In this document: in pieces, positions 4,053 to 28,724 of the stretch | How the letters are laid out: each line of letters starts with the position of its first letter | Numbering within the stretch: the first letter of the stretch is position 1 | Assembly: GCA_963773655.1 (NCBI GenBank) | Contig: CAVZBX010000006.1 | Coordinates: forward strand, 97,201 to 161,200 | DNA from: an uncultured Actinomycetota bacterium | GTDB taxonomy: Bacteria > Actinomycetota > Actinomycetes > Actinomycetales > Dermatophilaceae | DNA length: 64,000 nt | Reading direction: 5' to 3' | Translations under genes and position numbers: made by a program | Notes under the pieces: generated by a model | The model's input: only the letters and a program-made list of their open reading frames with translations | Databases searched by the model: none | What the model was told of the DNA's origin: nothing

Positions 4053-4883
4053 ATGGAGACGGTCGCGGTCATCGGGGCGGGAGCGATGGGCGCCGGGGTG
4101 GGCCGGCGCCTGCGCGACAGGGGGTGCACCGTGCTGACGCTGCTCGACGGCCGCACACCCGCGACGCGGGAGCGCGCCGAGGAGGCCGGCATGCGCGAGG
4201 CCTCGCTCGAGGAGGTGGGGCGGGCCGACCTGGTCCTGTCGATCGTGCCGCCGGCGGCAGCCGAGGCGGTCGTCGACACGGTCCTCCCCGTGCTGCCGGG
4301 CGGCCCGGTGTTCTGCGACGCCAACGCCGTCAGCCCCGCCACCACGACGCGGATGGCCGAGCGCGTCACCGCCGCCGGTGGCCGCTTCGTCGACGGTGCG
4401 GTCATCGGTGGTCCACCCGAGCAGGGCTACGACGGGCCGCGCGTCTACCTGGCCGGGCCGGACGCGACCGAGGTCGCCGCCCTGGGTCGGCTGGGGCTCG
4501 ACGTGCACGTCCTCGACGGCCCCGTGGGTGCGGCCTCGGCCCTGAAGATGTGCTATGGCGGGCTGAACAAGGGCGTCATCGGGCTCGCGACGGCGGTCCT
4601 GCTCGCGGCCGAGCGTCACGGGGCCGCCGACGACCTCGTCGCGGAGATGGGAGGAAGCATGCGATGGCTGCTCGACCGGCTCCCCACGGCGGTGCCGGGC
4701 ATGTACCCGAAGGCGTACCGGTGGGACACCGAGATGCACGAGGTGGCGGCCTTCCTCGGCTCCGCCGACTCCGCGGCGCAGCGGGTCTGGGACGGCCTCG
4801 GCGACTTCTACACCGACCGTGCGGCCGCGCACGGCGCCGGCCAGGAACTCGCCGCCCTCCGACGGCTGCTCGACCGCGGCTGA
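4053..4883 (+). CDS. NAD(P)-dependent oxidoreductase (6-phosphogluconate / 3-hydroxyisobutyrate dehydrogenase-like NAD-binding domain with a DUF1932-like C-terminus).
   Basis: N-terminal Rossmann motif VAVIGAGAMGAGVG. Overall length and the C-terminal helical domain (ASALKMCYGGLNKGVIGLATAVLLAAE) match this family. Confidence 0.8.
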   Translation: METVAVIGAGAMGAGVGRRLRDRGCTVLTLLDGRTPATRERAEEAGMREASLEEVGRADLVLSIVPPAAAEAVVDTVLPVLPGGPVFCDANAVSPATTTRMAERVTAAGGRFVDGAVIGGPPEQGYDGPRVYLAGPDATEVAALGRLGLDVHVLDGPVGAASALKMCYGGLNKGVIGLATAVLLAAERHGAADDLVAEMGGSMRWLLDRLPTAVPGMYPKAYRWDTEMHEVAAFLGSADSAAQRVWDGLGDFYTDRAAAHGAGQELAALRRLLDRG

Positions 4884-4950
4884 GGACCGCGCACCCCCCT
4901 GCCGCCCGCTTTGCCCGGCGGGTGGGCCGACGGCTACCCTGTGCGACGTT

Positions 4951-5040
4951 GGAGGCGTCGCCTAGTCCGGTCTATGGCGCCGCACTGCTAATGCGGTTTG
5001 GGCTAACCGCCCATCGAGGGTTCAAATCCCTCCGCCTCCG
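4951..5040 (+). tRNA. tRNA-Ser (anticodon GCT).
   Basis: Cloverleaf readable by hand. Acceptor GGAGGCG/CGCCTCC, anticodon stem CCGCA/TGCGG with loop CTGCTAA, a long variable arm, T-arm GAGGG-TTCAAAT-CCCTC and discriminator G. Confidence 0.9.
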
Positions 5041-5042
5041 CA

Positions 5043-5083
5043 CACGGAAACCCCCGGGAGCTTGCGACCGGGGGTTTTCCGTG
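5043..5083 (+). terminator. GC-rich hairpin immediately downstream of tRNA-Ser(GCT).
   Basis: CACGGAAACCCCCGG (5043-5057) pairs with CCGGGGGTTTTCCGTG (5068-5083) with a one-base bulge and a 10-nt loop. Confidence 0.5.
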
Positions 5084-5201
5084 GGCGGAGGCGGGGCGAT
5101 GCCGGGAGAGGATCGCGCGGGTGAGGGACGAACCCGCGCGAGCCTCGGTCCCTCCGCCTCCGCCCTCGGGGCGGGAGGGTTCCCGGGGCCGGACCTCGGC
5201 C

Positions 5202-5978
5202 TCAGTGGTTCTCCGAGAGGCTCCACATCGTCCACAGCTCGGTGCGCATCCGGCGGGGCTGGCGCAGGGTGTACACGACCGCCTCGGCGATGTCGGTCGG
5301 CTCCATGAAGTCCCCCTCGGAGGGGTCCTTGCCGCCGAACCGTCCGTCGGCCGCCGCGAACCCGGTGTTCACCCCGGCCGGTGCGATGACGGTGGTGCGG
5401 ATGCCCTCGGTGCGCAGCTCGCGGTCGAGCGCGGTGCCGAGGTTGATCTGGGCACCCTTGGTGGCGGCGTAGACCGCCTCCTTGCCGCCGCCGATCATCA
5501 GCCCGGCGACCGACCCCATGATGACGATGTCGCCGCCGTCGCCCTGGGCGCGGAACTGCCGCACCGCCGCGCGGGCCAGCCACACCGTGCCCTTGACGTT
5601 GAGGTCGACCATGAGCTCGACCTCCGCCGAGGAGTAGTCGAGCACGCCGCCGTAGAACCCGACCGCGGCGTTGGCCACCACGGAGTCGACGCGGCCGAAG
5701 GTGTCCACCCCGGCCGCGACGAGGGCGTCGGCCGTGGCCTCCAGCCGGGAGTCGCCGACGAGGGTGACGAGCCGGTCCCCGCCCCACTCCTCGCGAAGCA
5801 GGGCGAGGGACTCATCCCTGAGGTCGCCCGCGACCACCCGGCCACCGCACTCGAGGACCAGCCGCGCCGTGGCCCCGCCGATGCCGCCACCGGCACCGGT
5901 GACGACGACGACGGTGTCCTGCAGGCTGCGCCAGTGCCCGTTCGTGGCACCACCGTCGAGGTGGTAGGGGGCGGTCAC
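5202..5978 (-). CDS. Short-chain dehydrogenase/reductase (SDR), possibly a polyol (sorbitol-type) dehydrogenase.
   Basis: GTG at 5978 overlaps the upstream permease stop (GTGA). Cofactor motif VVVTGAGGGIGG and catalytic YAATK are present. It is the last gene of the sugar-ABC operon. Confidence 0.85.
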   Translation of the reverse strand: MTAPYHLDGGATNGHWRSLQDTVVVVTGAGGGIGGATARLVLECGGRVVAGDLRDESLALLREEWGGDRLVTLVGDSRLEATADALVAAGVDTFGRVDSVVANAAVGFYGGVLDYSSAEVELMVDLNVKGTVWLARAAVRQFRAQGDGGDIVIMGSVAGLMIGGGKEAVYAATKGAQINLGTALDRELRTEGIRTTVIAPAGVNTGFAAADGRFGGKDPSEGDFMEPTDIAEAVVYTLRQPRRMRTELWTMWSLSENH

Positions 5979-6790
5979 TTGATGGCGCCCATGGACAGGC
6001 CGCGGACGAGCTGTTTCTGGGCTACCCATCCGGCGATGATGACGGGGAGGGCGGCGATGGTGGCGGCGGCGGACAGGACGGCGAGGAACTGTCCGCGTCC
6101 GTCGACGAAGCTGCCGAGGAACGGTGGGGTGGTGCGGGCGGCGGAGCTGGTGAGGATGAGGGCGAGGAAGTACTCGTTCCAGGCGAAGATGAAGCTGATC
6201 AGGGCGGCGGCGGCGACGCCGGGCAGGACCAGGGGCAGCGCGATCCGGAAGATCTCCCGGCCCAGGCCGACGCCGTCGACGCGGGCGGCCTCGATGATCT
6301 CGTAGGGGACCTCGAGGTAGAACGAGCGCATCATCCACACGGTGACCGGCAGGTTCATCGCCGCGTAGACCAGGGAGAGCATGTAGATGTTGTCGAGCAG
6401 GTTGATCGTCTTGAAGATCATGAACAGGGGCAGCACGATCGCCGCGAGCGGCATGAACCGGGTGGAGATGAAGAAGGACAGGGTGTTCTGCGGGTTCTTG
6501 GTGGTGCGGATCGACAGGGCGTAGGCGGCCGGGATGGCCAGCGCCACGGCGATGATCGTGGAGATGACCGCGGCGGTCAGCGAGTTCTGCAGGTAGCCCA
6601 GCATCCCGCGGTCCATCGCCAGCTGGTAGCCCTCGGTGGAGGGGGTGAAGAACAGCTTGGGGTTGACCGAGGAGGCGACCGACTCGGGCTTGAACCCGTT
6701 GACCACCATCCAGAAGACGGGGAAGAAGAAGGCCAGGACCAGCACCCAGGTGCCCGCGGTGACCAGCCCACCCTTGGCGCGCGTGCTCAT
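5975..6790 (-). CDS. Carbohydrate ABC transporter permease (MalG-type).
   Basis: ATG at 6790 overlaps the stop of the upstream permease (ATGA). Six-TM layout with the EAA-loop region EAARVDGVGLGREIFRIALPL. Confidence 0.9.
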   Translation of the reverse strand: MSTRAKGGLVTAGTWVLVLAFFFPVFWMVVNGFKPESVASSVNPKLFFTPSTEGYQLAMDRGMLGYLQNSLTAAVISTIIAVALAIPAAYALSIRTTKNPQNTLSFFISTRFMPLAAIVLPLFMIFKTINLLDNIYMLSLVYAAMNLPVTVWMMRSFYLEVPYEIIEAARVDGVGLGREIFRIALPLVLPGVAAAALISFIFAWNEYFLALILTSSAARTTPPFLGSFVDGRGQFLAVLSAAATIAALPVIIAGWVAQKQLVRGLSMGAIK

Positions 6791-7743
6791 CGGCTTCCTC
6801 CTGCCATGAAGACCTTGAAGACGGACTTGAGCGCGATCGTGGCGACGATGATCGTCAGGATCACGGTGACCACGCCGTAGGCGGCCGCCTGGCCGATGTC
6901 CAGGCCGATGAACGCCCGCTCGTAGAGCAGGTACGCCAGGGTCTTGGTGCCGCCGGTGCCCTTGGTCAGGATCGCGATCGGGTCGAAGACCTGCAGGATG
7001 ATCACCGACCCCAGCAGCACCCCGATCTCGATGTACATCCGCAGGTGCGGCAGCGTGATCCAGGTGAAGGTCCGCCACGGGCCGGCGCCGTCGACCAGCG
7101 CCGCCTCCAGGATCCCCTTGTCCTGCCCCTGCAGCCCGGCCAGCAGGATCAGCATCATGAACGGGGTGAACTGCCAGGTCAGCACGATCACCACGGTCGC
7201 CATCGGGTGCTCGGTGCCCCACGAGACCAGCGGCAGCCCCAGGGAGCGCAGGACCCAGTTGACCATCCCGATGTTGGTGTCGAACATCGAGTACTTCCAG
7301 ATCAGCGACGCCGCCGCCGGCATGATCAGGAACGGGGTGATCATCAGCGTGCGGGCCAGGGCCCGGCCCCGGAACTGCCGGTCCAGCAGCACCGCGAACA
7401 GCAGCCCGAACAGGACCGCCAGGGTCACCGACAAGGCGGTGATCTGCACCGTGGCCACGATCGAGGGCCACAGGTCACCCGAGGTCAGGGCGCTGGTGTA
7501 GTTGTCCAGCCCGGCGAACTGCCGGTCCTGCGGGTACAGCAGGTTCCACTCCGTCAGGGAGTACCCGATCGTGGTCAGGAACGGGATCTGGGTCATCACG
7601 ATCAGGAAGACCACCGCCGGGAGCATCAGGGCCCGGTTGGTCCACAGCTCCTTGCGCCTGAGCCGCTTGCGGTCCAGGGCAGTCCTGCCCTGCACCTCGT
7701 CCAGCTCGATCGGTGGGGGGGTGTTGTCGGTCGTGGTCGTCAT
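6787..7743 (-). CDS. Carbohydrate ABC transporter permease (MalF-type).
   Basis: Complete ORF with EAA-loop EAALVDGAGPWRTFTWITLP and a typical TM pattern. Confidence 0.9.
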   Translation of the reverse strand: MTTTTDNTPPPIELDEVQGRTALDRKRLRRKELWTNRALMLPAVVFLIVMTQIPFLTTIGYSLTEWNLLYPQDRQFAGLDNYTSALTSGDLWPSIVATVQITALSVTLAVLFGLLFAVLLDRQFRGRALARTLMITPFLIMPAAASLIWKYSMFDTNIGMVNWVLRSLGLPLVSWGTEHPMATVVIVLTWQFTPFMMLILLAGLQGQDKGILEAALVDGAGPWRTFTWITLPHLRMYIEIGVLLGSVIILQVFDPIAILTKGTGGTKTLAYLLYERAFIGLDIGQAAAYGVVTVILTIIVATIALKSVFKVFMAGGSR

Positions 7744-7952
7744 CTCGGCACTCCCTCGTGCGACCTGCGGTGACTGTTCACTTCACGGTGCCTGCAGCCT
7801 GCGCCCACCCCGAACGTGCGGTGCCTGCGTGCAGTACGCGGTGCCCGCAGTCTGCTCCCGCTCGGCACGGGCGGCGACCGCTGGAGGAGGGTGGGACGGG
7901 TGCCGGGGCCGGCTCCAGGGCCGGACCCGGCACCCGCGTCACGTGGCCGGCG

Positions 7953-9317
7953 TCAGCCCTTCTGCTTGTCGCCGGCTTCCTGGGCGATGCCCTGGCACCT
8001 GCCCAGCGCGTCCTCGATCGAGGTGCGCCCCGCCAGGTAGTCCGCCACCAGCTGGGCGCACTGGTTCCCGACGTCCTGGAACTCGGGGATCGAGACGTAC
8101 TGGATGCCCACGTACGGCTGCGGGTTGACCCCCGGCTGCTCCGGGTTCACCGAGCTCATCACCTCCAGGGTCAACGGTGCGTACGCCGCGGCCGCCTCCT
8201 TGTACTCCGGGATCTCGTAGGTCGAGGTGCGCGAACCCGGCGGGACGTTGCTCCAGCCGATCTTCTCCCCGACCAGCTTGATGTACTCCTTGCTCGTGGC
8301 CCACTTCACGAAGTCGACCGCCGCGTCCTGCTGCTTGGTCGAGGCCGGCACCGCCAGGTTCCAGCTCCACAACCACCCCGACTGGTCGGTCTCGACCACC
8401 GGCATCGGCACGTAACCCATCTTGCCCTTCACCGGGGAGTCATCGGCCTCCAGCAGCGACGCCGCCACCGTGGCATCGGCCCACATCGCGGCCTTGCCCT
8501 CCTTGAGCGCGGTCAGGCACTCCGGGAAGCTGTAGGACACCGGGTCGGCCTGACCGGACTCATCCAGCATCTCCTTGTAGAAACCCACCGCCTGCTTCCA
8601 CTCCGGGGTGTCGACCGTGGCGTTCCAGTCCATGTCGTACCAGTTACCGCCGAAGGTCTGCACCACCGTGGTCAACGGCCCGAACAGGTCACCCCACCCC
8701 GGCTTGCCCCGCATGCAGATACCGGACATCTCCTTGGTGTCGACCTTCTTCGCCGCATCCGCCACCTGCTGCCAGGTCGGCGTCCCCGAGAACGTGACCC
8801 CCGCCCCGTCCAGCACGTCCTTGCGGTACATCAGGAACGAGGACTCACCGTAGAACGGCACCGCGAACAGCTTCCCCTCGAAACTGTTGACCTCCCGCAC
8901 CGGCGGCAGGATGTCATCGACGTCATAGTCCGCGTCCGAGGACAGACTCTCGGACAAGTCCACCAACCACCCGTTCGCACCCCACTGCGGAGTCTCGTAC
9001 GCCCCGATCGTCACGATGTCGTACTGACCAGCACCCGACGCCACATCAGCAGTCACCGCCGCCCGCAGATCACCCTCCTCCATCACCTGGAAGTTCACCG
9101 TCGTCCCCGGGTTCGCCGCCTCGTACTCCGACTTCAGCTGCTCCATGTCCTTCATCTGCGGGTTGTTCACCGTCGCCAAGTTCAACGTCACACTCCCACC
9201 CCCCGCAGCATCGCTCCCGTCGTCGCTGGAGACCGCGCCCGACGAGCAGGCTGCCATCGCCATGGCGGACGCCAGGGCACCCGCGCCCAGCGCCAGCATG
9301 CGCTTCTTCGCATCCAT
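7953..9317 (-). CDS. Sugar/polyol ABC transporter substrate-binding lipoprotein.
   Basis: Signal peptide plus lipobox MLALGAGALASAMAMAACSSG. Family-1 extracellular solute-binding protein length and composition. First gene of the permease operon. Confidence 0.9.
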   Translation of the reverse strand: MDAKKRMLALGAGALASAMAMAACSSGAVSSDDGSDAAGGGSVTLNLATVNNPQMKDMEQLKSEYEAANPGTTVNFQVMEEGDLRAAVTADVASGAGQYDIVTIGAYETPQWGANGWLVDLSESLSSDADYDVDDILPPVREVNSFEGKLFAVPFYGESSFLMYRKDVLDGAGVTFSGTPTWQQVADAAKKVDTKEMSGICMRGKPGWGDLFGPLTTVVQTFGGNWYDMDWNATVDTPEWKQAVGFYKEMLDESGQADPVSYSFPECLTALKEGKAAMWADATVAASLLEADDSPVKGKMGYVPMPVVETDQSGWLWSWNLAVPASTKQQDAAVDFVKWATSKEYIKLVGEKIGWSNVPPGSRTSTYEIPEYKEAAAAYAPLTLEVMSSVNPEQPGVNPQPYVGIQYVSIPEFQDVGNQCAQLVADYLAGRTSIEDALGRCQGIAQEAGDKQKG

Positions 9318-17130: not shown

Positions 17131-17562
17131 ATGGGCAAGCTGTCCTTCATCGCCGGCCTCGCTGCCGGCTACGTCCTCGGGGCGAAGGCCGGGCGCCAGC
17201 GCTACGAGCAGATCGCCCGCACCTCGGAGAAGGTGTGGAACTCCCAGCCCGTCCAGAAGCAGGTCGAGCGGGGCAAGGAGGTCGCGAAGACCAAGGCCGC
17301 ACCGGTGGTCGCCGACATGGTGGCCGACGCCGCCCGTGCCACCGGCGAGAAGCTGCGCCAGGGCAAGACCATCGCCTCGGAGGCCCTCTCGAGCGGCGAC
17401 GACTCCCCCACCTCAGGCACCGGTGCGGACAACAGCGCGCCGGGCGGCAGCACCCCTCCCGGCGCCTCCTCCGCCGGTGGCGGCGCCAACGGTGGGGCCA
17501 CCGCGCAGGAGCACACCGACGCCTGGTCGGCGGCCACGAGGCCGACGAGCACCTCGGACTGA
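17131..17562 (+). CDS. YtxH-like small protein with a low-complexity Gly/Ser/Ala tail.
   Basis: N-terminus MGKLSFIAGLAAGYVLGAKAGRQRYEQI is the YtxH-type amphipathic/TM start. AAAGGAG lies upstream of the ATG. Confidence 0.7.
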   Translation: MGKLSFIAGLAAGYVLGAKAGRQRYEQIARTSEKVWNSQPVQKQVERGKEVAKTKAAPVVADMVADAARATGEKLRQGKTIASEALSSGDDSPTSGTGADNSAPGGSTPPGASSAGGGANGGATAQEHTDAWSAATRPTSTSD

Positions 17563-17623: not shown

Positions 17624-18070
17624 GCCGTTCGTGGGCGGTCCAGCACCTCGGTCGGTGCCACCGTCGGCTCTCGGTCCGGCTCCGGACACCGAGCCGGTCA
17701 CACCGTCGGCGCCCCCTGCGGCACCCCGGACGCTCCCTGCAGACGTCCGGCCCGGTGTGACCGGCTCATTCCGTGTGGGACCGGCTCCGCGGCCCGGCAC
17801 CGGGCCGCGGTGACCTCCCGACTCCACGGCTGCCTTCGTACCCGCCCCTGAACCGGGTCGTCCGCCGCCGTGGCTCCGAGAGGTCCACGTGGAGGAGGAG
17901 GGGCCGGTCGGACGCCTGATACATGCTCTGCCGACGACGTTCGATTCGCCTCCGGGCTAGACGTATCACCGGTGCCCGGCGACCCTCCTGTTCAGCGACG
18001 ATGATCATCACTACGCTGGCCGAGCCGGTGCCATCCCTGCACTGCCCGGCCCTCGGGAGGAGCCCCCTGC

Positions 18071-19759
18071 ATGGTCCAGGACCCCAGCGCCGACTTCCCC
18101 ATCTTCGCGGTCCCCGCGTCGGCCTTCCAGCGCTTCCGCGCCGTGGTCCTCGATCCTGACTCCGCCCTCCTGCGTGGCGAGGAGCAGCCGCCGCGCCCGA
18201 CCGTCTACCGTGCCGACCGGCTGATCATCCCCGGGTACCCCGGCGACGTCCCGCGCGAGGACGACGGCGCACCCTCCACCGGTGGCCCGGACCAACGCCC
18301 CGAGACACCCCTCGACCGACTGCGCGCGATCGGCGCCCGGGACCAGTTCACCGTCCGGGTGCTCAACCGCGACGTCAGCGACCTCGCGGAGGCGCTCGGC
18401 GAGGAGGACCTGATCCGTCGCCAGGCTCGGCTGGCGGTGGAGCTCGAGCCCGTCCGGGGCCGCCAGCGACCCCCCGTCGACGCCTGGCGGGTGCTCCAGC
18501 AGGCACGCGAGGAGAGCCCGGACGACGCCCCGGGCTGGAGCCTGTCCCACGTCCTCATGGCCACCGGCTACGGGTCGGGTGTCGGCTACGGGTCGGGTGT
18601 CGGCTACGGCTCCGGCGTGGGCTACGGCTCCGGCGTGGGCTACGGCTCCGGAGTGGGCTACGGCTCCGGTGTCGGCTACGGCTCCGGAGTGGGCTACGGC
18701 TCCGGAGTAGGCTACGGCTCCGGCGTGGGCATACCGGGAACCGCCGACGGACGCACCCCGGTTCGGCTGCGGATGGAGCCTCCGGCGCCCACGGGAGGTC
18801 GTTCCCCCGTCGTCGCGATCCTCGACACCGGGCTCGGCAAGCACCCGTGGTTCCCCGACGACTCCGACCTCGTTCGCCGTAACCCTCAGGTCACCCTGCG
18901 CGACGGCAGCACCGTCCACCTCGGCCTCGACTTCGGCCAGCACGACCCGGAGGACTCCGGCGTCACCATCGACCGCGTCAACGGCTTCCTCGATCCCATG
19001 GCCGGACACGGCACGTTCATCGCCGGAGTCGTCCGGCAGCACTGCCCGGATGCGACCCTGGTCAGCGTCCCCGTGATGTACGGCGACGGTGCCGCCGACG
19101 AGGTCGACCTCGTCAGCTCGCTCCAGAAGCTGCTCATCTGGCACCGGGCCGGTCTCGCCGGCAGGAAGGGTTGCCTGCCGGTCGACGTCGTGACCCTCTC
19201 GCTGGGGTACTACCACGAGACCCCCGGAGCGGTCGACGACGAGGCAGCGCTCTTCCTCGCGATCCGCGAGCTGCAGCGAGCAGGTGTCTCCGTCGTCTCC
19301 GCCGCCGGCAACGGCTCCACCACGGAGGAGTTCTGGCCCGCAGCCCTGGCCGCGCCGAATCGGGTCGTGGAGGACGCCGCGCCGATCACCAGCGTCGGTG
19401 CCCGGAACGCCACCGGCGGCCGCGTCGCCCTCTTCTCCAACACCGGTCCGTGGGTGCGGGCCTACCGGTGCGGGGTCGCCGTCGTGAGCACGATGCCGGT
19501 GACGTTCAACGGCTCCCTCGGCGCCTCCGTCGTCGTTGCCGGCTCCGCCACGCACACCCCCGCGCGGGCGACACCGGACCCCGATGACTTCTCCTGCGGC
19601 TTCGCCGTGTGGAACGGGTCGTCCTTCTCCGCACCGGCGTTCGCCGGTGAGCTGGCCCGCCTGCTCGCGCAGTGCAAGCCCCCGACGGGCGCCGAGGCCA
19701 TGGCGACGCTTGCTGCGGAGACGGTGCCCTCGCTCCTTCCGCAGGAGGGCGAGTCGTGA
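18071..19759 (+). CDS. S8 family (subtilisin-like) serine peptidase, predicted cytoplasmic, with a unique 165-aa N-domain and a (GYGSGV)x9 linker.
   Basis: Catalytic Asp in VVAILDTGLG, His in MAGHGTFIAG, oxyanion Asn in SAAGNGS and Ser in NGSSFSAPAF. No signal peptide or TM helix is visible. GGGAGGAG lies 8 nt upstream of ATG 18071. Confidence 0.9.
   Translation: MVQDPSADFPIFAVPASAFQRFRAVVLDPDSALLRGEEQPPRPTVYRADRLIIPGYPGDVPREDDGAPSTGGPDQRPETPLDRLRAIGARDQFTVRVLNRDVSDLAEALGEEDLIRRQARLAVELEPVRGRQRPPVDAWRVLQQAREESPDDAPGWSLSHVLMATGYGSGVGYGSGVGYGSGVGYGSGVGYGSGVGYGSGVGYGSGVGYGSGVGYGSGVGIPGTADGRTPVRLRMEPPAPTGGRSPVVAILDTGLGKHPWFPDDSDLVRRNPQVTLRDGSTVHLGLDFGQHDPEDSGVTIDRVNGFLDPMAGHGTFIAGVVRQHCPDATLVSVPVMYGDGAADEVDLVSSLQKLLIWHRAGLAGRKGCLPVDVVTLSLGYYHETPGAVDDEAALFLAIRELQRAGVSVVSAAGNGSTTEEFWPAALAAPNRVVEDAAPITSVGARNATGGRVALFSNTGPWVRAYRCGVAVVSTMPVTFNGSLGASVVVAGSATHTPARATPDPDDFSCGFAVWNGSSFSAPAFAGELARLLAQCKPPTGAEAMATLAAETVPSLLPQEGES
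18566..18727 (+). repeat. In-frame 18-bp tandem repeat, 9 copies, each encoding GYGSGV.
   Basis: The copies are ggctacgggtcgggtgtc x2, ggctacggctccggcgtg x3, ggctacggctccggagtg x2, ggctacggctccggtgtc x1 and ggctacggctccggagta x1. All differences are synonymous. Confidence 0.95.
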
Positions 19760-20355
19760 TGCACACCGATGCCGGAGCCGACAGCCTCGCCGTCCGGGCG
19801 GCCCAGGCATTCCGCGCCTACCGGGACGGCGACGGCTCGGGCATGTCGACCCTCGTCGACGAGGTGACCCCCCTGCTCTGGGCGGTGGCCCGCCAGCAGG
19901 GACTGGCTCAGCAGGCCGCCGAGGACACGGTGCAGAACACCTGGCTCAAGCTCGTCGAGCACGCGACGTCGATCACCGACCCGCAGTCGGTCCTCAAGTG
20001 GTTGACCACGACGACCAAGCGCGACGCCTGGCACCTGGTCGCCCGTTCGCACCGCGAGGAGCCGGCCCGGGGCGCCGACGTCCGCGACGTCGACACCGAC
20101 GAGACCTCGCCCTCCCCCGAAGACGCCGTCCTCGCCGAGGCCGACCACCGGCTGGTCTGGGACCACTTCCGCAGACTCCCCGAGCGCTGCCGGACCCTCC
20201 TGCGTGCCATCGCCTTCGTCGACCGCCCCGACTACGCCGGCGTCGCCGAGGCGCTCGGCATGCCCATCGGCTCGATCGGCCCCACTCGCGGCCGGTGCCT
20301 CGCAAAGCTGCGCTCCTCCCTCACCTCCGACCCCCGATGGGAGATGACCTCATGA
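19759..20355 (+). CDS. ECF-type sigma-70 family RNA polymerase sigma factor.
   Basis: Region 2 reads AAEDTVQNTWLKLVEH...KWLTTTTKRDAWH and region 4 reads LPERCRTLLRAIAFVDRPDYAGVAEALGMPIGSIGPTRGRCLAKLR. ATG 19759 shares one nucleotide with the S8 stop (TGATG). Confidence 0.85.
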   Translation: MHTDAGADSLAVRAAQAFRAYRDGDGSGMSTLVDEVTPLLWAVARQQGLAQQAAEDTVQNTWLKLVEHATSITDPQSVLKWLTTTTKRDAWHLVARSHREEPARGADVRDVDTDETSPSPEDAVLAEADHRLVWDHFRRLPERCRTLLRAIAFVDRPDYAGVAEALGMPIGSIGPTRGRCLAKLRSSLTSDPRWEMTS

Positions 20356-20849
20356 CCCCCACGCCCGAACACGAGTTCACCCTCGCCGCCGAACAGCTCG
20401 ACACCACGGACGCGACGATCATCGGGGCAATCCGGGAGGTACACGAGAGCCTCGACCCGGTGCCCGGGGACCTGGTGGACCGGATCAAGTTCGCGATGAG
20501 CATCGCCTCGCTCGAGGCGCAGGTGGCCGAGATCGTCTCGGAGTCGGCGATGGCGTCGGTCCGGGGCACGGACTACGACCGCGCCGACACCGTCACCTTC
20601 GCCAGCGACGGCCTCAGCGTCATGGTCACCATCGAGCACAGCGGGACGGCTCGCGCCGACATCGCCGGGTGGGCCAGCGAGGGCAACCTCGAGGTGGAGC
20701 TCCGCGAGCGCGGACGCACCCGGACCACCGTAGCGGACGACGACGGACGGTTCACCTTCGTGGGGGTGGAGCGCGGTCTGGTCAACTTCGTCCTGAGGCG
20801 ACCGGACCGCGACGCACCGCCGATCATCACGCCGGCGATCGAGCTCTAG
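20352..20849 (+). CDS. Hypothetical 165-aa cytoplasmic protein (candidate anti-sigma factor or protease substrate).
   Basis: ATG 20352 overlaps the sigma stop (ATGA). Coding-like composition. Helical N-half (DPVPGDLVDRIKFAMSIASLEAQVAEIV) and beta-rich C-half (DDDGRFTFVGVERGLVNFVL). No family recognised by eye. Confidence 0.7.
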   Translation: MTPTPEHEFTLAAEQLDTTDATIIGAIREVHESLDPVPGDLVDRIKFAMSIASLEAQVAEIVSESAMASVRGTDYDRADTVTFASDGLSVMVTIEHSGTARADIAGWASEGNLEVELRERGRTRTTVADDDGRFTFVGVERGLVNFVLRRPDRDAPPIITPAIEL

Positions 20850-20857
20850 GAGGATCC

Positions 20858-23440
20858 ATCGAGGAAGACTCCCTCACGTCGGCCGAGCGGCTGCTCGAGT
20901 CCGCCCGCCACGAGAACGAGGTGGGTCGCTTCGACCACGCGGCGGCGCTGATCGGGGACGCCTTGGGTCGTCTCGACGGCGCCACCGGCACCCGGCACGA
21001 GACCCTTCGCGTCCGGCTCCTCATCACCGGCGCCTGGAGCCGGCTCGAGACCGAGGGACTCACGGCGGCTCTGGCCGCCCTGCACGAGGCGCGCACGCGC
21101 GCACGCGCCCTCGGGGACGAGCTCCTCTCCGCGCTGTGCCGGGTCCAGGAGGGCGTCGTGCTCGGCCACGTCGGAGCCTGGCGGCAGTCCCTGGAGGCGA
21201 TGGAGCACGTCGGTGGCGGAGAGCGCCTACTCAACCCCTCGCAACGCTGCGCGCTGCACATCAACCGCGGGCTCGCCTACATCGGCCTCGGGGCGACGAG
21301 CGCGGCCGAGGCCGAGCTGGTGGTGGCCCTCGACGTCGCCGTCGAGCACGGGCTGCGCGACCAGGAGTTCAAGACCCGGCACAACCTGGCCCAGCTGGCG
21401 TATGTCGAGGGCCAGCTGCCGCGCGCCCTTGTGCTCCTGCGGCAGGCCGAGGGCATGGACGTCGCCGTCAGCCGTGACCGTGCCCGGCTCGACCACGCCG
21501 AGGTCCTCCTCGAGGCCGGTCTGGTCGATGGCGCCCGGGGCATGCTCGAGGAGGCCCTGGAGACGGCCCGGGGCCAGGGCCACCGGCTCGAGGAGGGCGA
21601 GATCAGCCTGCGCCTGGGCCGGTGCGACCTGCTCGCCGGCGACCTGGACGGTGCCCGGCGCCACCTTCACCGGGCGATCGCCGCCTACCGGTCCCGACAG
21701 GCGGACGACCTGGTGGCCGAGGCCGAGCTGATCCGCGCCGGTGTCGACGTCGCCGAGGGCCGGGACCTTCCGGGGGTCGTCATGCGGCTCGCCGCGCGGA
21801 CCGACCGGCGCAGCGAGGTCCACGGCCCCCTCACTCCCGCCGAGCGCGACGCAGTCCGGCTGGAGGCGGAAGCGCGGCTGTTGCTCGGCGACGTCGCAGG
21901 CGCCGAGCGCCGGCTGACCTCCCTCGGGGCCGGCGCCGACCGCTCCCTCGCCGGAGCGCTCCACGAGGTGCTCGTGCGCGCCCGACTCGACCTCGCTCGG
22001 GGCCGACCGGAGGCAGCCGCCGAGCGGCTCGAGGCGGGCAACCGCGTGCTGGCCGCACACCAGTTCCAGTCGGCGAGCCTCGACGTTCGCGCCGGCATGG
22101 CCCTCCACGGCCGCCGCGCGGCGGGCCTTGACGTCGAGCGGGCTCTCCTCACGCGCGACGCCGATGAGGTGCTCACCACCGTGGAGCGGTGGCGCGCCAT
22201 CTCGCACCGGATCAATCCGGTGACCGCACCCGGCGACCCCGAGCTCGCGTCGACGACCCGCGAACTGCGCCGACTGCGCCGGCTCCTCGCCGACGGGGAG
22301 GGCGATGCCGAGCCCGACCTCGAGTCCCGGGTCGCCGAGCTCGAGTCTCGCGTGGCCGAGCGCGAGTGGGGGCTCGCTGTCGAAGGCGTGGCCGCGGGTG
22401 CCGTGCACCCGGTGACGGCGCTGGAGGCCAAGGAAGCCGCAGCCGCATCCGGCACCACCGTCGTCGAGTTCTTCGAGTCCGGGGCCGACCTCTACCAGGT
22501 GGTCGTCAACGCGACCGCGACGGACGTCGTGCGCGTGGGGGCGGTGGCCGACGTCGTCACCCTGGTCACCCGGCTGCGCCGTGACCTGCGCGCGCGGGCG
22601 GGTGTCGCTCCCGGGTCTCCCATGGCGCCGGTTCTCGAGCGCGCGACCGCCTCGTCGCTCGCCGCTGTCGACTCGGCGCTGAACCCGTCGGGCGCGGCCT
22701 CCGGCCGGGTCGTCGTCGTGCCCTCGCGCAGCCTCGCCGGGATGCCGTGGAGCCTCATGCCGAGCCTGCGGGGCCGCCCGGTGGTGGCGGCGCCATCCGC
22801 CACGCGGTGGGTCCGTGGGGCTGCCGAGCACGGGGGCGCCAGAGCCGTCGAGCCGGTCGCCGCGCTCCACGGCCCCGGGCTCGCCCGCACGGCCCCGGAG
22901 ATCCGGTCTGTCCTGGAGGCGTGGCAGGAGCCCGTCCCCACCGGCGTCGCCGCGGCGACGAGCGAGACGGTCGTCGCGGCGCTCGCCTCCGCGCGCATCG
23001 TGCACCTCGCCGCTCACGGCACCCACGAGGGCCAGAGCCCCCTGTTCTCGTCGGTGCGGATGGCCGACGGGCCGGTGTTCGCCCACGAGTTCCCCCGGCC
23101 GGTGCGTGCCGAGCACGTCGTGCTCTCGGCCTGCGACGTCGGGCAGTTCTCCACCCGGCCGGGCGACGAGCCGCTGGGCCTGGCCATCGCGTTGCTCTCC
23201 CTGGGAGCCACCAGCGTCCTCGCGGCCGTGGCCCCCGTGGCCGACGACGTCGCCCACGACGCGATGGTGGCCTACCACCGGCTGCTGGCGGGCGGCGCCG
23301 ACTCGGCCGACGCCTGGGCACGGGTCGTCGAGGGTGAGCCGGCCGCCGGCGTCTTCTGCCTCTACGGCTCGGACTGGAGCGCCCACCACGGCTCCGACGG
23401 CTCGACCTTGGAGCCTCGAGCGGCACCCGGGTCGAGCTGA
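20858..23440 (+). CDS. TPR-repeat CHAT domain protein (caspase-like cysteine protease).
   Basis: About 600 aa of helical TPR-like repeats, then a CHAT domain with His in IVHLAAHGTHEG and Cys in VVLSACDVGQ. No Walker A motif. The start is uncertain: AGGAGGA at 20848-20854 is followed only by ATC 20858, CTG 20891 and GTG 20921 in frame. Confidence 0.85.
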   Translation: MEEDSLTSAERLLESARHENEVGRFDHAAALIGDALGRLDGATGTRHETLRVRLLITGAWSRLETEGLTAALAALHEARTRARALGDELLSALCRVQEGVVLGHVGAWRQSLEAMEHVGGGERLLNPSQRCALHINRGLAYIGLGATSAAEAELVVALDVAVEHGLRDQEFKTRHNLAQLAYVEGQLPRALVLLRQAEGMDVAVSRDRARLDHAEVLLEAGLVDGARGMLEEALETARGQGHRLEEGEISLRLGRCDLLAGDLDGARRHLHRAIAAYRSRQADDLVAEAELIRAGVDVAEGRDLPGVVMRLAARTDRRSEVHGPLTPAERDAVRLEAEARLLLGDVAGAERRLTSLGAGADRSLAGALHEVLVRARLDLARGRPEAAAERLEAGNRVLAAHQFQSASLDVRAGMALHGRRAAGLDVERALLTRDADEVLTTVERWRAISHRINPVTAPGDPELASTTRELRRLRRLLADGEGDAEPDLESRVAELESRVAEREWGLAVEGVAAGAVHPVTALEAKEAAAASGTTVVEFFESGADLYQVVVNATATDVVRVGAVADVVTLVTRLRRDLRARAGVAPGSPMAPVLERATASSLAAVDSALNPSGAASGRVVVVPSRSLAGMPWSLMPSLRGRPVVAAPSATRWVRGAAEHGGARAVEPVAALHGPGLARTAPEIRSVLEAWQEPVPTGVAAATSETVVAALASARIVHLAAHGTHEGQSPLFSSVRMADGPVFAHEFPRPVRAEHVVLSACDVGQFSTRPGDEPLGLAIALLSLGATSVLAAVAPVADDVAHDAMVAYHRLLAGGADSADAWARVVEGEPAAGVFCLYGSDWSAHHGSDGSTLEPRAAPGSS

Positions 23441-23453
23441 CCGGGGGCACCGC

Positions 23454-24053
23454 TCAGATGAAGATCGCCGGCTCGGCGAACAGCGCGTCGTAGGGGTCCT
23501 GCCCCAGCCGCGCGGGGAAGCGCACCTGCGCCGGGATGCCCGTGGCCACGGCCCCGGCGGGGACGTCCTTGACGACGACGGAGTTGGCGCCGATCTGCAC
23601 GTCGTCGCCGATCTCGATGTTCCCGAGGACCCGCGCGCCGGTGCCGATGGTCACCCGGTCGCCGACCGTCGGGTGCCGCTTCACCCCGCGCTGGAGCGAG
23701 CGGCCGCCGAGGGTGACCCCGTGGTAGAGCATCACGTCGTCACCGACCACCGCGGTGGCACCGATGACGACGCCCATCCCGTGGTCGATGAAGAACCTCC
23801 GGCCGATCCGGGCGCCGGGGTGGATCTCCACTCCGGTGACCGCCCGGGTGGCCGTGGAGACCAGCCGCGCCACCGGGTGCCACTGCGGTCCGCGGTCCCA
23901 GATCCGGTGCGCGAGGCGGTAGGACCAGATCGCGTGCAGCCCCGGGCTGTTGAACGCGACGTCGGCCCGCGTCTGCGCAGCGGGGTCACGGCGCATCGCG
24001 GCATCCAGGTCCTCCCGGATGACCGCGCGCGCTCGCTGGACGAAGGACGCCAT
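23454..24053 (-). CDS. cysE: Serine O-acetyltransferase.
   Basis: Left-handed beta-helix hexapeptide repeats ([40 protein letters not shown]...[25 protein letters not shown]). It lies directly downstream of cysK. Confidence 0.9.
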
Positions 24054-24055
24054 GG

Positions 24056-24986
24056 TCAGTCGACGAGCCCCTCGAAAAGGATCGTGGAGAGGTAGCGCTC
24101 GCCGAAGCTGGGGATGATGACGACGATCGTCTTGCCGGCGTTCTCGGGGCGCTTGGCGACCTCGTTGGCGGCCGCGAGCGCGGACCCCGAGGAGATGCCG
24201 ACGAGCAGCCCCTCCTCGGTGGCGGCCTTGCGGGCCCACTCCACCGAGGTCTGGGCGTTGACGTCGATGACCTCGTCGTAGATCTCGGTGTTGAGGATCT
24301 CCGGGACGAAGTTGGCGCCGATGCCCTGGATCTTGTGCGGCCCGGGCTGCCCGCCGTTGAGGATCGGGGACTCCTCGGGCTCGACCGCGATGATCTGGAC
24401 CTCGGGCTTGCGCGACTTGAGCACCTCGCCGACCCCGGTGATGGTGCCGCCGGTGCCGATACCGGCCACGACCACGTCGACCTGGCCGTCGGTGTCCTTC
24501 CAGATCTCCTCGGCCGTGGTGCGGCGGTGGACCTCCGGGTTGGCGGCGTTCGCGAACTGGCGGGCGAGCACGGCGCCCTCGCGCTCGGCGACGATCTCCT
24601 CGGCGCGCGCGACCGCGCCCTTCATCCCCTCGGACCCCGGGGTGAGGACGAGCTCGGCACCGTAGGCGCGCAGCAGCGCCCGGCGCTCCTTGGACATCGT
24701 CTCCGGCATGGCGAGGACGACCTTGTAGCCGCGGGCCGCGCCGACCATCGCCAGCGCGATGCCGGTGTTGCCCGACGTGGCCTCGACGATGGTGCCCCCC
24801 GGCCACGAGGTCGCCGCTCGCCTCGGCGGCGTCGACGATGGAGACGCCGATGCGGTCCTTGACGGAGCTGGCCGGGTTGTAGAACTCGAGCTTAGCCGCC
24901 ACCGTGGCGTCGCCCTCGATGATCCGGTTGAGCCGGACGAGGGGGGTGTTGCCGACGGCCTGGGTCACGTCGTCGAGGATGGGCAT
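24056..24986 (-). pseudogene. cysK: Cysteine synthase A (O-acetylserine sulfhydrylase), frame broken by one extra base in a 6-nt C/G run at 24795-24800.
   Basis: The N-terminus [20 protein letters not shown]...[32 protein letters not shown] carries the PLP-lysine motif. It is in one frame, and [32 protein letters not shown]...[10 protein letters not shown] (ORF 24056..24748) is in another. Removing one G restores a canonical CysK. Confidence 0.8.
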
Positions 24987-25345
24987 CGGGTCGCCTTTCG
25001 ATGGTCGGTCGCGGGCACCGGCGGCCCGGGCGGGCGACGGCGCGCTGCATCAGTCCTGCGGACGGGGCAACCCCCGGCCGCTTATGCGTATTCCAACAGA
25101 GAGTTATCCGTGTGGACAACGCGCGTCCCGGGAGTGGACGCGGACGCCCGGGCGCTCCTCGGCGGTGACCTTGACCAGCGTCACACCCGCCGGGCCGGTG
25201 CCCCCGCCGGAACCCGACACTAGACTCGCCGGGACGTGCTACTGCCGGGTAACAGTGATGCTGGACCCGTCGCCGACGTGGTCAGACCCGGCCGGCGCGA
25301 GACCGAACCGGAACCGCCCGGCGTGGGCGAAGTCAGGAGAGAGCG

Positions 25346-28300
25346 ATGAGCTGGGTCCTCGCAGTCGGACTCCTCATGAACGCGATCGCGTTGCCGCTGG
25401 CGGCGCGCCGGGTGGCGTGGATCACCCGGGTGATCCGCAGCGGCCAACCCGCACCGGACCGCGTCGAAGGCGTCCGGGAGCGCGTCGGCGCCGCCGTGAA
25501 GCGGCAGGTCGTCGAGGTCCTCGGCCAGAAGAAGCTGCTCAAGTGGTCGGTGCCGGGCGCCGCGCACTTCTTCGTGATGTGGGCGTTCTTCATCCTCGCG
25601 ACGGTCTACCTCGAGGCCTACGGCTCGCTCTTCCAGGAGGGCTTCGCGATCCCGGTCATCGGCACCTGGGGTGTGCTCGGCTTCCTCCAGGACTTCATCG
25701 CCGTGATGGGCCTGCTCGGCATCATCGTCTTCGCCGTCATCCGGCTGAGGAACTCCCCCGCGAAGCTCGGGCGACGCTCGCGCTTCGAGGGTTCGCACCT
25801 CGGCGGTGCCTGGCTGACGCTCTTCATGATCTTCAACGTCATCTGGACGATGTTCCTGTTCCGCGGCGCCGGCGTCGTCACCGGCAACTTCCCCTACGGC
25901 GAGGCGGCGTTCGCGTCGCACGCGGTCGGGTCGCGGCGCTCGAGCCGATCGGCGAGGACGCCGACCTGATGGTCGAGCACGTGGGGCTGCTGCTCCACAT
26001 CGGCGTCATGCTCGTGTTCCTCATCTTCGTGCTGCACAGCAAGCACCTGCACATCTTCGTGGCCCCCATCAACGTCCTCTTCGGACGGCGGCCGGTGGCT
26101 CTCGGCGCGGCGACCCCGCTGCTGGTCGGCGGCCGGCCCTTCTCGATGGAGTCGGTCGAGGAGATGGACGAGGGCCAGTCGCTCGGCGTCGGCGCGGTCG
26201 AGGACTTCACGTGGAAGGGCCTGCTCGACTTCACCACCTGCACCGAGTGCGGTCGCTGCCAGAGCCAGTGCCCGGCGTGGAACACGGAGAAGCCCCTCTC
26301 TCCGAAGATGCTGATCATGACGCTGCGGGACCACGCGAACGCCAAGGCTCCCTTCGTCCAGGCCGTGCAGCGCGCCGGCGGCGATGCCGAGCAGGTGCCC
26401 GCCGCGCTCCACGCAGTGCCGGCCCCGGCCCACGCGCACGACGGCGCCGGACCGTCGGCCACCGACGGGCTGACGTGGGACGCGCTCCCGCTCGTCGGCG
26501 AGACCGGCTACGACCTCGCCGACCCGTTCGGCGCGTACCAGCCGGTGGGCCCGGGGGCGGTGGTCGACGCCGACGTGCTCTGGTCGTGCACCACGTGTGG
26601 CGCGTGCGTCGAGCAGTGCCCGGTCGACATCGAGCACGTCGACCACATCATCGACATGCGCCGGTACCAGACGCTGATCGAGTCCGCGTTCCCGAACGAG
26701 CTCGCCGGGCTGTTCCGCAACATGGAGAGCAAGGGCAACCCGTGGGGCCTCGGCGCACGGGCCCGGCTCGACTGGGCCAAGGACCTGCCCTTCGACGTCA
26801 AGGTGCTCGGCCAGGACGTCGAGAAGGCGTCCGACGTGGAGTGGCTGTTCTGGGTGGGCTGCGCCGGCGCCTACGAGGACCGCGCCAAGAAGACCACCCG
26901 GGCGGTCGCCGAGCTGCTCGACACCGCCGGGGTGTCCTTCGCCGTCCTCGGTGACGGCGAGACGTGCACCGGCGACTCCGCACGCCGTGCCGGCAACGAG
27001 CTGCTCTACCAGACCCTGGCCGAGCAGAACGTCGAGACCTTCGGCGAGTTCGGCGTCACCAAGGTGGTCGTCACCTGCGCCCACTGCTTCAACACCATCA
27101 AGAACGAGTACCCCGAGCTCGGGGGCACCTACGAGGTCGTCCACCACACCCAGCTGCTCAACCGGCTCGTCCGTGAGAAGAAGCTGACGCCGGTGGCCCG
27201 GCCCGACGAGGCCCCCGGCATGTCGACGGCGAAGAACGCCGCCTCCACCGCGGGCACGGTCACCTACCACGACCCCTGCTACCTCGGCCGGCACAACGGC
27301 GTCTACGCGCCGCCGCGCGAGCTCATCGGCGCCCTGCCCGGGGTGGAGCTGCGGGAGATGCCGCGCAACGCCGAGAGGGCGTTCTGCTGCGGTGCCGGTG
27401 GGGCACGGATGTGGATGGAGGAGAAGCTCGGGTCGCGGGTCAACACCAACCGCACCGAGGAGGCCCTGGCCACCGGCGCCGAGAGGATCGCCATCGGCTG
27501 CCCCTTCTGCCGGGTGATGATCTCCGACGGCGTCACGGAGAAGGAGGCCGAGGACACAGTCGAGGTCGTCGACGTGGCCCAGATGCTGCTCGCCGCGGTC
27601 CGCCGGGGTCAGGACTCCACCGTGGCCGAGGCCCCCGTGGGCGGGCGAGGCGACCGCGGCCGCCGGCGCGGCGACCGCCACCGCGACCGCCGTCGCCACC
27701 GAGCAGGAGACGCCCGCTGACGCGCCGCCTGCGGCCGCAGCACCGTCGGACACGGCGGCTCCGCCGACCACCGGCGAGGCGGACCCGTGGGACGAGCCGG
27801 CCACCGCCGCCACGTCCGCGTCCGCGTCCGCACCCGCGGCGCCTGCCGACACCGAGCCGGACCCCTGGGACCAGCCGCCGGCAGCCGAGCAGCCGGAGGC
27901 CGGTCGCTCCCAGGGAGAGCCGGGGCCGGTCAAGGTCAAGGAGGACGCCGCCGCATCCGGCGACGACGTCGACCCCTGGGACGAACCCGCCGACGCCACA
28001 CCAGCGACCGCGACAACGGCCCCAGCCCCCGCCCCGGCCGAGACACCCACCGACGACGTCGACCCCTGGGACGAACCCGCCGACGCCACACCAGCGACCG
28101 CGACAACGGCCCCGGCCCCCGCCCCGGCCGAGACACCCACCGACGACGTCGACCCCTGGGACGAACCCGCCGACGCCACACCAGCGACCGCGACAACGGC
28201 CCCAGCCCCCGCCCCGGCCGAGACACCCACCGACGACGTCGACCCCTGGGACGAGCCCGCCGAGGCCGTGTCCGACACTGCGCCGGCATCCGACGTCGAG

Positions 28301-28498
28301 CCCGAGCCGACGGCCACCGAGCCAGTGACCGATGCGCGGTCCCCGTCCGAGGAGGCCGCGACCGAAGCCGGCACCGAGGCAGGGGCGGCCGCGCGGGAGC
28401 CCGAGGCCGACAAGAAGCCGACGGGGTCGTCAGCCGCTGCCGACGGGTCGTTCGGCGGGGACGCCGCACTCGTCGACGAGCCCGACCCCTGGGACTGA
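25346..28498 (+). pseudogene. Membrane-anchored (Fe-S)-binding reductase: N-terminal TM domain, 2x[4Fe-4S] ferredoxin motifs, two CCG domains and an acidic Pro-rich repeat tail. Two frame disruptions (about 25928-25930 and 27643-27645).
   Basis: Segment 1 is ORF 25346..25969, rich in TM helices. Segment 2 (frame of ORF 24904..27720) carries CTECGRCQSQCP and CTTCGACVEQCP plus the CCG-type motifs VGCAGAYEDR, CAHCFNT, FCCGAGGARMW and GCPFCRVM. Segment 3, back in the first frame, runs to TGA 28496-28498 through the DPWD repeats. About 1050 aa if repaired. Confidence 0.75.
27961..28262 (+). repeat. Near-perfect 90-bp tandem repeat, 3.3 copies, in frame within the Fe-S reductase tail.
   Basis: The units 27961-28050, 28051-28140 and 28141-28230 differ at one position (cccagccccc versus cccggccccc). 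A fourth partial copy runs to about 28262. Each unit encodes DDVDPWDEPADATPATATTAPAPAPAETPT. Confidence 0.95.
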
Positions 28499-28689
28499 CC
28501 GGAGTCACCTCGGCTCAGCGCACCTTCGGTGTACTCAGCGCACGCTGCACCCTGCGCTGAGCGCCACCACGGTGCGCTGAGCCGCGGTTCGCGACCGCCG
28601 CGCGGACACCGCCTCCTGCACCCGGCCCCCGGTCGGGTCGCACCCGCCGGCCGGACCGGACCAGCCCCCGAGAGCCACGGCCCGGACGC

Positions 28690-28724
28690 GAGTGAGCCCG
28701 CCGGGAACCCCGGCGGGCTCACTC
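28690..28724. terminator. Perfect about 15-bp hairpin between the convergent Fe-S reductase and osmoprotectant binding-protein genes.
   Basis: GAGTGAGCCCGCCGGG pairs with CCCGGCGGGCTCACTC around a short AAC loop. Confidence 0.5.

Follow-up and report, generated by a model that had tools for sequence, protein, structure and literature searches.

Four adjoining genes of an uncultured Dermatophilaceae bacterium raise the question of why a sigma factor of the extracytoplasmic function (ECF) type should be encoded together with two proteases, and whether this arrangement constitutes a system of its own. The genes are co-oriented on the plus strand at positions 18071-23440 of a 64,000-nucleotide stretch of contig CAVZBX010000006.1 (hereafter, the window), which consists of high-GC actinobacterial DNA (~73% GC). 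In order, they encode a subtilisin-like S8 protease (18071..19759; 562 aa; Pfam PF00082, Peptidase_S8, E 5e-14), the sigma factor (19759..20355; 198 aa; Sigma70_r2 and TIGR02937 sigma70-ECF in Pfam/NCBIfam, E 3e-15), a two-domain protein of 165 aa called orf3 below (20352..20849; its only match in Pfam/NCBIfam is a weak one to CarboxypepD_reg), and a caspase-like protease combining CHAT (Pfam, E 3e-22) with tetratricopeptide repeats (TPR) (20858..23440; 860 aa if translation starts at ATC 20858). An earlier note on this DNA, made from the sequence alone, had described four same-strand open reading frames with essentially no intergenic space, and all of its junctions were found where it had placed them: the S8 stop overlaps the sigma start in TGATG (19757-19761), the start of orf3 overlaps the sigma stop in ATGA (20352-20355), and the Shine-Dalgarno sequence AGGAGGA (20848-20854) overlaps the orf3 stop TAG (20847-20849). 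The G+C content at third codon positions (GC3) is ~0.9, and the coding frame shifts exactly at the boundaries of the four genes. A hydropathy scan agreed with the same note in finding no signal peptide or transmembrane-like segment in the four proteins, the highest 19-residue Kyte-Doolittle mean (2.19) lying within the CHAT core fold. Its further statement, of no Walker-A NTPase in the locus and no cas gene or CRISPR array in the window, stood for NTPases, since Pfam found no such domain in the four proteins, and for arrays, with none CRISPR-like in the 64 kb; for cas genes it stood for the four proteins, which gave no cas-type match in a PADLOC search that covered these only and not the rest of the window.

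The question of novelty is answered by the literature. The same gene set was published as sigma factor group ECF54 by Huang, Pinto, Fritz & Mascher (2015) and described again by Casas-Pastor et al. (2021, ECF Hub). According to the Casas-Pastor et al. supplement, ECF54 is 100% actinobacterial, has a CarboxypepD_reg-like domain invariably placed at +1, a subtilase either at +2 or at -1 and proteins with CHAT and TPR domains, lacks a putative anti-sigma factor, carries two sigma4 cysteines in some subgroups, and has a predicted promoter whose -35 element is GTATCAG and whose -10 element is CTCC. In the window, an actinobacterial ECF-type sigma factor of 198 aa is followed at +1 by a CarboxypepD_reg-like protein (weakly matched here; 44 of 64 family members match in Pfam), with the S8 protease at -1 and the TPR-CHAT protease at +2, as in 58 of the 80 related loci described below. 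The site GTATCA-N16-CTCCT lies upstream of the operon at 17963-17989, its motif having been recovered de novo before the published one was known to us, and the motif GSIGPTRGRCL and the sigma4 cysteines C144 and C180 are invariant in six divergent homologues of the sigma factor. Because taxon, +1 protein, subtilase, CHAT/TPR protein, promoter and sigma4 cysteines all match, the locus is a canonical member of ECF54, with no difference in composition. The claim that no such composition had been described is thereby refuted. A review (PMC8999054) has also proposed that ECF54 is regulated by the neighbouring proteases, so that composition, promoter and the idea of proteolysis were all published before. 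The accessible ECF54 descriptions say nothing of two domains in a model of the +1 protein, of S8 peptide arrays, of an AUC start codon, of sigma-less units or of a divergent second promoter. A search of the searchable literature for an experimental paper on ECF54 found none. A redox input through C144 and C180, as in SigK/RskA, is conceivable.

How far the four genes belong together was judged from related loci. As alignments of the 165-aa family contain no stretch conserved enough for retrieving loci, the sigma alignment was used instead, and one genome per species was scanned for GSIGPTRGRCL, its invariant sigma4 motif. Relatives of the sigma factor are encoded in at least 499 species genomes, and gene order was read in 80 loci among them, to which the counts of gene order refer. 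All 80 loci were from Actinomycetota, spanning Dermatophilaceae, Nocardioidaceae, Jatrophihabitans, Pseudonocardiales, Nitriliruptorales, Cellulomonas, Micromonospora, Actinoplanes and Streptosporangiaceae, with Phycicoccus, Nostocoides and Ornithinibacter as the nearest relatives. Besides the 58 loci with the order S8-sigma-orf3-CHAT, the four genes co-occur in permuted order in about eight more. The variants comprised sigma-orf3-S8-CHAT, with the subtilase at +2 (about six loci), sigma-S8-orf3-CHAT (one), two complete units in tandem (two), sigma-orf3-CHAT (two) and sigma-orf3 without proteases (five), and sigma-less extra units (S8-orf3-CHAT or orf3-CHAT) were present in L010, L011 and L044 of our numbered loci. 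The tightly coupled module of an ECF sigma factor and two apparently active cytoplasmic proteases, as the earlier note had read it from the sequence, is thus co-conserved beyond close relatives, across Actinomycetota. In several genomes at least two units follow one another in tandem (4402-9303 and 9379-14612 in L010; also L012, L014, L044 and L058), and some of these units lack the sigma gene (S8-orf3-CHAT, orf3-CHAT or S8-CHAT); L010 is syntenic with the window and has its extra sigma-less unit upstream, with the near-match promoter GTATCA-N16-ATCCT. Contigs encoding distant relatives of the 165-aa protein (32-51% identity) showed the same neighbour genes. The module adjoins the same cysE/cysK pair in 23 species, and in plasmid and phage collections its family was absent except for two doubtful records, an 11.8-Mb Nonomuraea record and a 7.5-kb metagenomic fragment. 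PADLOC (PADLOC-DB v2) gave no convincing match to a known defence system, only marginal, partial ones to a generic subtilase model (3e-5), a "1TM effector" (5e-4) and BovA (2e-3 over 57 residues). The best explanation of these data is a vertically inherited, cytoplasmic, autoregulated signalling operon of Actinomycetota.

The autoregulation is suggested by the promoter. The plus-strand site at 17963..17989, ~80 nt upstream of the S8 start, is on its sequence probably an autoregulated operon promoter. GTATCA-N16-CTCCT occurs twice in the 64-kb window, compared with 0 expected by chance, and in 1.24 Mb of related loci 104 of 109 motif sites fell in the 450 bp upstream of the module's first gene. 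The spacing is rigid, with CTC[CT] at an identical distance in 72 of 84 GTATC instances. The second promoter-like site of the window, at 17896..17922 on the minus strand, forms a conserved island in the intergenic alignment; this divergent copy, 40-100 bp upstream of the plus-strand one, was found upstream of S8 in 39 of the 80 loci and upstream of sigma in 7. A gene of the HopA1 family (PF17914), which includes lyases of ribosomally synthesized and post-translationally modified peptides (RiPPs), is present in 13 loci (L036, L038, L039, L040, L037, L022, L026, L083, L054, L074, L033, L072 and L048), its start lying 7-44 nt past the -10 element in the seven loci that are readable at the promoter. 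No HopA1 gene is present in the window, and here and in close relatives the minus-strand promoter faces only the 3′ end of a 143-aa gene, possibly giving an antisense or other transcript. Candidates for a conserved minus-strand reading frame behind it, in the window and its close relatives, turned out to be antisense translations of the 143-aa gene and were discarded as artefacts.

Which component might control the sigma factor is suggested by the position of orf3. It directly follows sigma in ~79 of the 80 loci, with a 4-nt overlap in 36 and a 1-nt overlap in 10, a pattern typical of sigma/anti-sigma pairs; translation of the two genes is coupled. Because five loci consist of sigma and orf3 only, and orf3 is also part of the sigma-less S8-orf3-CHAT and orf3-CHAT units, it is the only component that accompanies each half of the module alone. 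The 165-aa family is large: at E ≤ 1e-3 an exhaustive profile search yielded 869 cluster representatives, of which 369 also passed E ≤ 1e-10 and nearly all measured ~160 aa. A second, word-indexed profile search mostly returned the same close relatives. An AlphaFold2 model built from 64 sequences (predicted local distance difference test, pLDDT, 91.7) placed helices at residues 5-13, 18-34 and 41-69 and a CarboxypepD_reg-like beta-sandwich at residues 80-165, joined at ~62-79 by an exposed linker of lower confidence (pLDDT ~68-71), which contains a near-invariant Arg71 followed by a small residue. The family has no conserved Cys/His zinc site. Since the protein has no catalytic domain, the name "carboxypeptidase" used in the review is a misnomer, and the 165-aa protein is not a peptidase. 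The best conserved parts of the family include its extreme C-terminus, P-[VI]-[IV]-T-P-x-[IV]-E-[LI]-stop, in which T160 and P161 are near-invariant; this end may serve as a tail for recognition or may just be the final beta-strand.

The second protease raises questions of kind and of start codon. Its His/Cys dyad, H721 (~23015) and C760 (23132), was invariant in 63 of 63 homologues, as expected from the intact dyad noted earlier. The AlphaFold2 model (pLDDT 89.4; predicted template modelling score, pTM, 0.87) combines a long helical solenoid with a caspase-like domain, and Foldseek matched it to separase (2e-13), Csx29 (9e-11) and DdvA (5e-9), whereas a sequence comparison with chains of the PDB gave no match. 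In structure, the protein is therefore of the separase/Csx29/DdvA type of TPR-CHAT protein. The earlier note had placed the CHAT frame directly after AGGAGGA; the Shine-Dalgarno sequence and the frame, which runs to 23440, are as described, but no ATG, GTG or TTG follows until GTG 20921. The same was seen elsewhere: among 52 loci, 27 have a CHAT gene with none of these codons at the homology start, and 19 of these 27 have an in-frame ATC, mostly 9-13 nt past the orf3 stop and behind a GGAG-like Shine-Dalgarno sequence. In the window, the junction at 20847-20860 reads TAGGAGGATCC-ATC. Because the ATC position recurs in 19 loci against a background frequency of 1.6% for this codon, translation of CHAT probably begins at a conserved AUC, corresponding to ATC 20858 in the window. 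Gene callers set the start far downstream (e.g. in L005). Two other starts were considered and rejected: GTG 20669, because GC3 shows that the frame is non-coding before ~20850, and GTG 20921, which would drop 21 conserved residues and has no Shine-Dalgarno sequence.

The S8 protease, for its part, has an intact triad, as had been noted: D252 (nt 18824), H313 (19007) and S518 (19622), together with the oxyanion residue N414, were invariant in 57 of 57 module homologues. Its layout comprises a conserved N-domain (aa 1-165; no Pfam family in nine N-domains scanned), a peptide array, a conserved YG.PG.GGR.PV segment and a complete catalytic domain (aa ~243-535). In the window, the array consists of nine head-to-tail copies of GYGSGV, encoded by an 18-nt unit at 18566..18727 on the plus strand (aa 166-219; Tandem Repeats Finder period 18, 8.8 copies, 92% matches), and the DNA copies differ synonymously only. 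Between its N-domain and its catalytic domain, essentially every module S8 homologue (L001-L091) carries such an array, made up of 3-11 identical peptides. Unit length is 6 aa in 35 of 54 arrays and otherwise 5, 7, 8 or 10 aa; the unit is lineage-specific (e.g. GYGSGV, GYGEGV, GYASGV, GYMSGV, GWGDGI, GGVWGGx, SPYWRP, GSPMVN, HPYTTG and HPMTGV) and differs even between the two units of a single genome (L012, L014). Across 44 arrays, all 161 variable DNA positions were synonymous, which is partly so by construction, the arrays having been chosen as perfect peptide repeats. Given these synonymous differences, the copies are not recent DNA duplicates. Each unit holds a single bulky hydrophobic residue of the kind that subtilisins prefer at P1. 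A left-handed beta-helix (hexapeptide-repeat fold) was considered for the arrays and is unlikely, as units of 5, 6, 7, 8 and 10 aa occur and many are proline-rich. The S8 arrays, the AUC start and the divergent promoter with its HopA1 gene are apparently unreported.

How might these parts work together? A protease-gated sigma switch, as the earlier note had suggested, is still the most sensible reading of the locus, and we give about an even chance to a specific form of it: the 165-aa protein acts as an anti-sigma factor or adaptor and as a protease substrate, CHAT and/or S8 cleave it, and the freed sigma factor drives its own operon. The case for giving orf3 this role lies in its occurrence with each half of the module alone, its place directly after sigma and its overlapping start. 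In such a scheme, the N-terminal three-helix domain of the 165-aa protein would hold the ECF54 sigma factor inactive, and a signal read by the TPR solenoid would switch on the separase/Csx29-like CHAT protease. Acting by itself or in a cascade with S8, CHAT would then cut the 165-aa protein, likely in its exposed linker and behind the near-invariant Arg71; for a separase-like enzyme of clan CD, this residue is plausible at P1. The S8 protease looks zymogen-like, with an N-domain, a repeat that may serve as a fuse, and the catalytic domain. Once freed, the sigma factor would transcribe its own operon, giving positive feedback, together with the divergent transcript, and the non-canonical AUC start would hold CHAT at a low level compared with its partner. 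Several observations weigh against this scheme. No anti-sigma domain (ASD, zf-HC2) was detected by Pfam in 64 members of the 165-aa family even at E ≤ 1. When the 165-aa protein was compared with solved structures, Foldseek returned nothing at E ≤ 1e-3 and only generic beta-sandwiches, and the family profile matched no PDB chain below E 0.05, its weaker matches being beta-sandwich carbohydrate binders. In sigma-less units orf3 keeps its N-terminal motifs, and its N-domain could therefore bind CHAT or S8 instead of sigma. The proteases may, moreover, be output rather than input, because all four genes share a sigma-dependent promoter, and the published ECF54 analyses state that regulators cannot be told from targets among the neighbours.

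The alternatives differ in what the proteases are taken to act on. In the published proposal there is no anti-sigma factor; S8 and/or CHAT degrade the sigma factor itself, which holds the system in the off state until proteolysis stops, with the CarboxypepD_reg-like protein as an accessory to the proteases. This is stated for ECF54 in PMC8999054 and is consistent with the lack of a recognised anti-sigma domain in the four proteins and with a regulatory-like beta-sandwich that could serve as a protease adaptor. We consider it unlikely, however, as the supposed carboxypeptidase has no catalytic domain, while the constant +1 position of orf3, its start/stop overlap and the loci with sigma and orf3 only point to a direct relationship between these two. 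The proteases also occur with orf3 where sigma is absent, which makes orf3, not sigma, their constant partner. A second possibility is that the proteases are the output, that is, a stress effector or one of the conflict or abortive-infection type: sigma and the 165-aa protein would control their expression, and CHAT and S8 would attack cellular or invader proteins, in the way of Craspase or of the cascade from SAVED-CHAT to PCaspase. The fold class common with Csx29, a two-protease architecture known from a type III-B cascade, the location of all genes behind the sigma-dependent promoter, the duplication and diversification of units within genomes (L012, L014, L044, L058) and the fast divergence of the S8 repeats between lineages, typical of arms-race loci, are in keeping with such a function. 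Yet the PADLOC matches were not meaningful (best E 3e-5 to 2e-3, over partial regions), the window holds no CRISPR array, the four proteins include neither a cas-type match nor an NTPase, the module keeps its fixed place beside cysE/cysK in 23 species, its flanking genes in the window are housekeeping, and it is absent from plasmids and phages save for the two doubtful records. We therefore regard an effector role as distinctly improbable, and the anti-phage switch that the earlier note had listed as an option is disfavoured.

The least probable of the alternatives, which we consider very doubtful, is a peptide-producing locus, in which S8 is a self-processing precursor that releases short peptides for export or modification, as a RiPP or pheromone, under the regulation of sigma and CHAT. 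Arrays of identical peptides are universal here, with only synonymous differences in their DNA, each unit has its single subtilisin-P1-like hydrophobic residue, and a gene of the HopA1 family, to which RiPP lyases belong, is divergently promoted in 13 loci. Against this, the locus contains no conserved exporter, kinase, cyclase or other maturation enzyme, the proteins have no secretion signals, and the HopA1 gene is found neither in the window nor in most loci. The peptides might instead act within the cell: S8 could double as a multi-copy peptide precursor whose units are excised by S8 or CHAT, with the TPR solenoid of CHAT reading the peptides or the intact array and so timing orf3 cleavage and sigma release. 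We think this improbable. Yeast alpha-factor/Kex2 and Bacillus Phr/Rap (RRNPP) stand for peptide precursors that S8 proteases process and TPR receptors sense. The locus resembles them in bringing together tandem short peptides of lineage-specific sequence, an S8 protease and a TPR protein, and a RapF-peptide complex was among the Foldseek matches to the TPR part of CHAT (rank 49); it differs in that the peptides are fused to the protease itself and nothing is secreted.

For the scheme in which orf3 is cleaved to release sigma, precedents of protease-released ECF sigma factors exist in Csx29-Csx30-RpoE, CalpL-CalpT-CalpS and DdvA-DdvS, and a cascade from a CHAT protein to a second protease is known from SAVED-CHAT and PCaspase. 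The likeness to type III-E Craspase lies in a TPR-CHAT protein of the Csx29 fold (Foldseek E 9e-11 to 1e-7, prob 1.00, template modelling score 0.3-0.48) encoded with an ECF sigma factor and a small partner whose cleavage, in Craspase, releases sigma. The locus differs in having no CRISPR array, Cas7-11/gRAMP, CRISPR RNA or Csx31 and in its added S8 protease, and the activating signal cannot be a target RNA. With Csx29, the CHAT protein has the fold class in common and no sequence-level match; the 165-aa protein has no detectable similarity to any solved chain, Csx30 included insofar as its chains (e.g. entry 8eey) are, as we assume, part of the PDB set searched. Csx30 is also about three times the size of the 165-aa protein. 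The earlier view that the locus reuses the type III-E trio is thus not supported as a statement of homology, because the 165-aa protein has no match in sequence or fold and CHAT none in sequence among solved chains; with Csx29/Csx30/RpoE the locus has its logic and fold class in common rather than family membership.

DdvA-DdvS of Myxococcus xanthus offers a parallel: there, the partner that controls an ECF sigma factor is joined to a TPR-CHAT module whose His-Cys dyad is intact (Foldseek E 5e-9), the anti-sigma domain is a three-helix bundle, and proteolytic release has been proposed. DdvA, however, unites everything in one membrane-spanning protein, its TPR-CHAT being periplasmic and its cytoplasmic domain zinc-binding, and depends on RseP, whereas the helical domain and the TPR-CHAT of the locus are on separate cytoplasmic proteins that lack transmembrane segments, and a conserved Cys/His zinc site is absent. 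The type III-B cascade from SAVED-CHAT to PCaspase and CalpL-CalpT-CalpS are likewise either cascades of proteases or systems that encode a protease beside a sigma factor and a small inhibitor or anti-sigma factor. In them, a protease is activated by another one, or the anti-sigma factor is cut by a protease; they are triggered by cyclic oligoadenylate via SAVED and lie in CRISPR or cyclic-oligonucleotide-based antiphage signalling (CBASS) loci, whereas the locus proteins have no SAVED, cyclase or Cas10. Separase, the best structural match of the CHAT protein (E 2e-13), also joins a helical solenoid to a caspase-like domain, and differs in being eukaryotic, twice the size and without a transcriptional output. 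A bound partner or pseudosubstrate restrains it, and its cleavage follows Arg. By analogy, and purely as an inference, the 165-aa protein or the S8 repeats may act as a pseudosubstrate in the manner of securin.

The surroundings of the module in the window are housekeeping in character. Upstream are genes for a PBP, a LacI-type regulator, a cupin and the 143-aa protein; downstream, cysK-like (PALP) and cysE-like (hexapeptide transferase) genes occupy different frames of a single long open stretch on the minus strand (23454-24990), convergent with CHAT and ending 14 nt from its stop. An Rfam scan of 17-24 kb gave no match. The 143-aa protein (17131-17562, plus strand) has an N-terminal MGKLSFIAGLAAGYVLGAKAGR segment, YtxH-like by eye, and a low-complexity tail, with no Pfam match; its gene lies upstream of the module in ~20 Dermatophilaceae loci and ~2 kb downstream of CHAT in L031, L047, L070 and L071. 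Farther away, at 27947-28306, a 90-nt unit is repeated four times in tandem (92-100% identical), with long open reading frames on both strands; the minus-strand frame of 942 aa that holds this region (25894-28722) had no Pfam match.

ECF54 is an ECF group without a recognised anti-sigma factor, whose control has been in question since 2015. Under the favoured scheme it would be a widespread, CRISPR-free, chromosomal version of the protease-released ECF sigma logic, present in at least ~500 actinobacterial species. The handles gained are a candidate anti-sigma factor in the +1 protein, a candidate cleavage linker at Arg71, a reporter-ready promoter and mutable active-site residues. The interest of the locus rests on a widespread system for which we found no experimental study, which is now directly testable, and on its surprising peptide arrays. 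These arrays have no obvious precedent in a bacterial cytoplasmic protease and are possibly the most interesting feature of the locus. If the S8 protease does serve as a peptide precursor within the cell, the module would be a self-contained, purely cytoplasmic switch of peptide ligand, TPR receptor and caspase-like protease, in which paralogous units of a single genome would be insulated from one another by their differing peptides.

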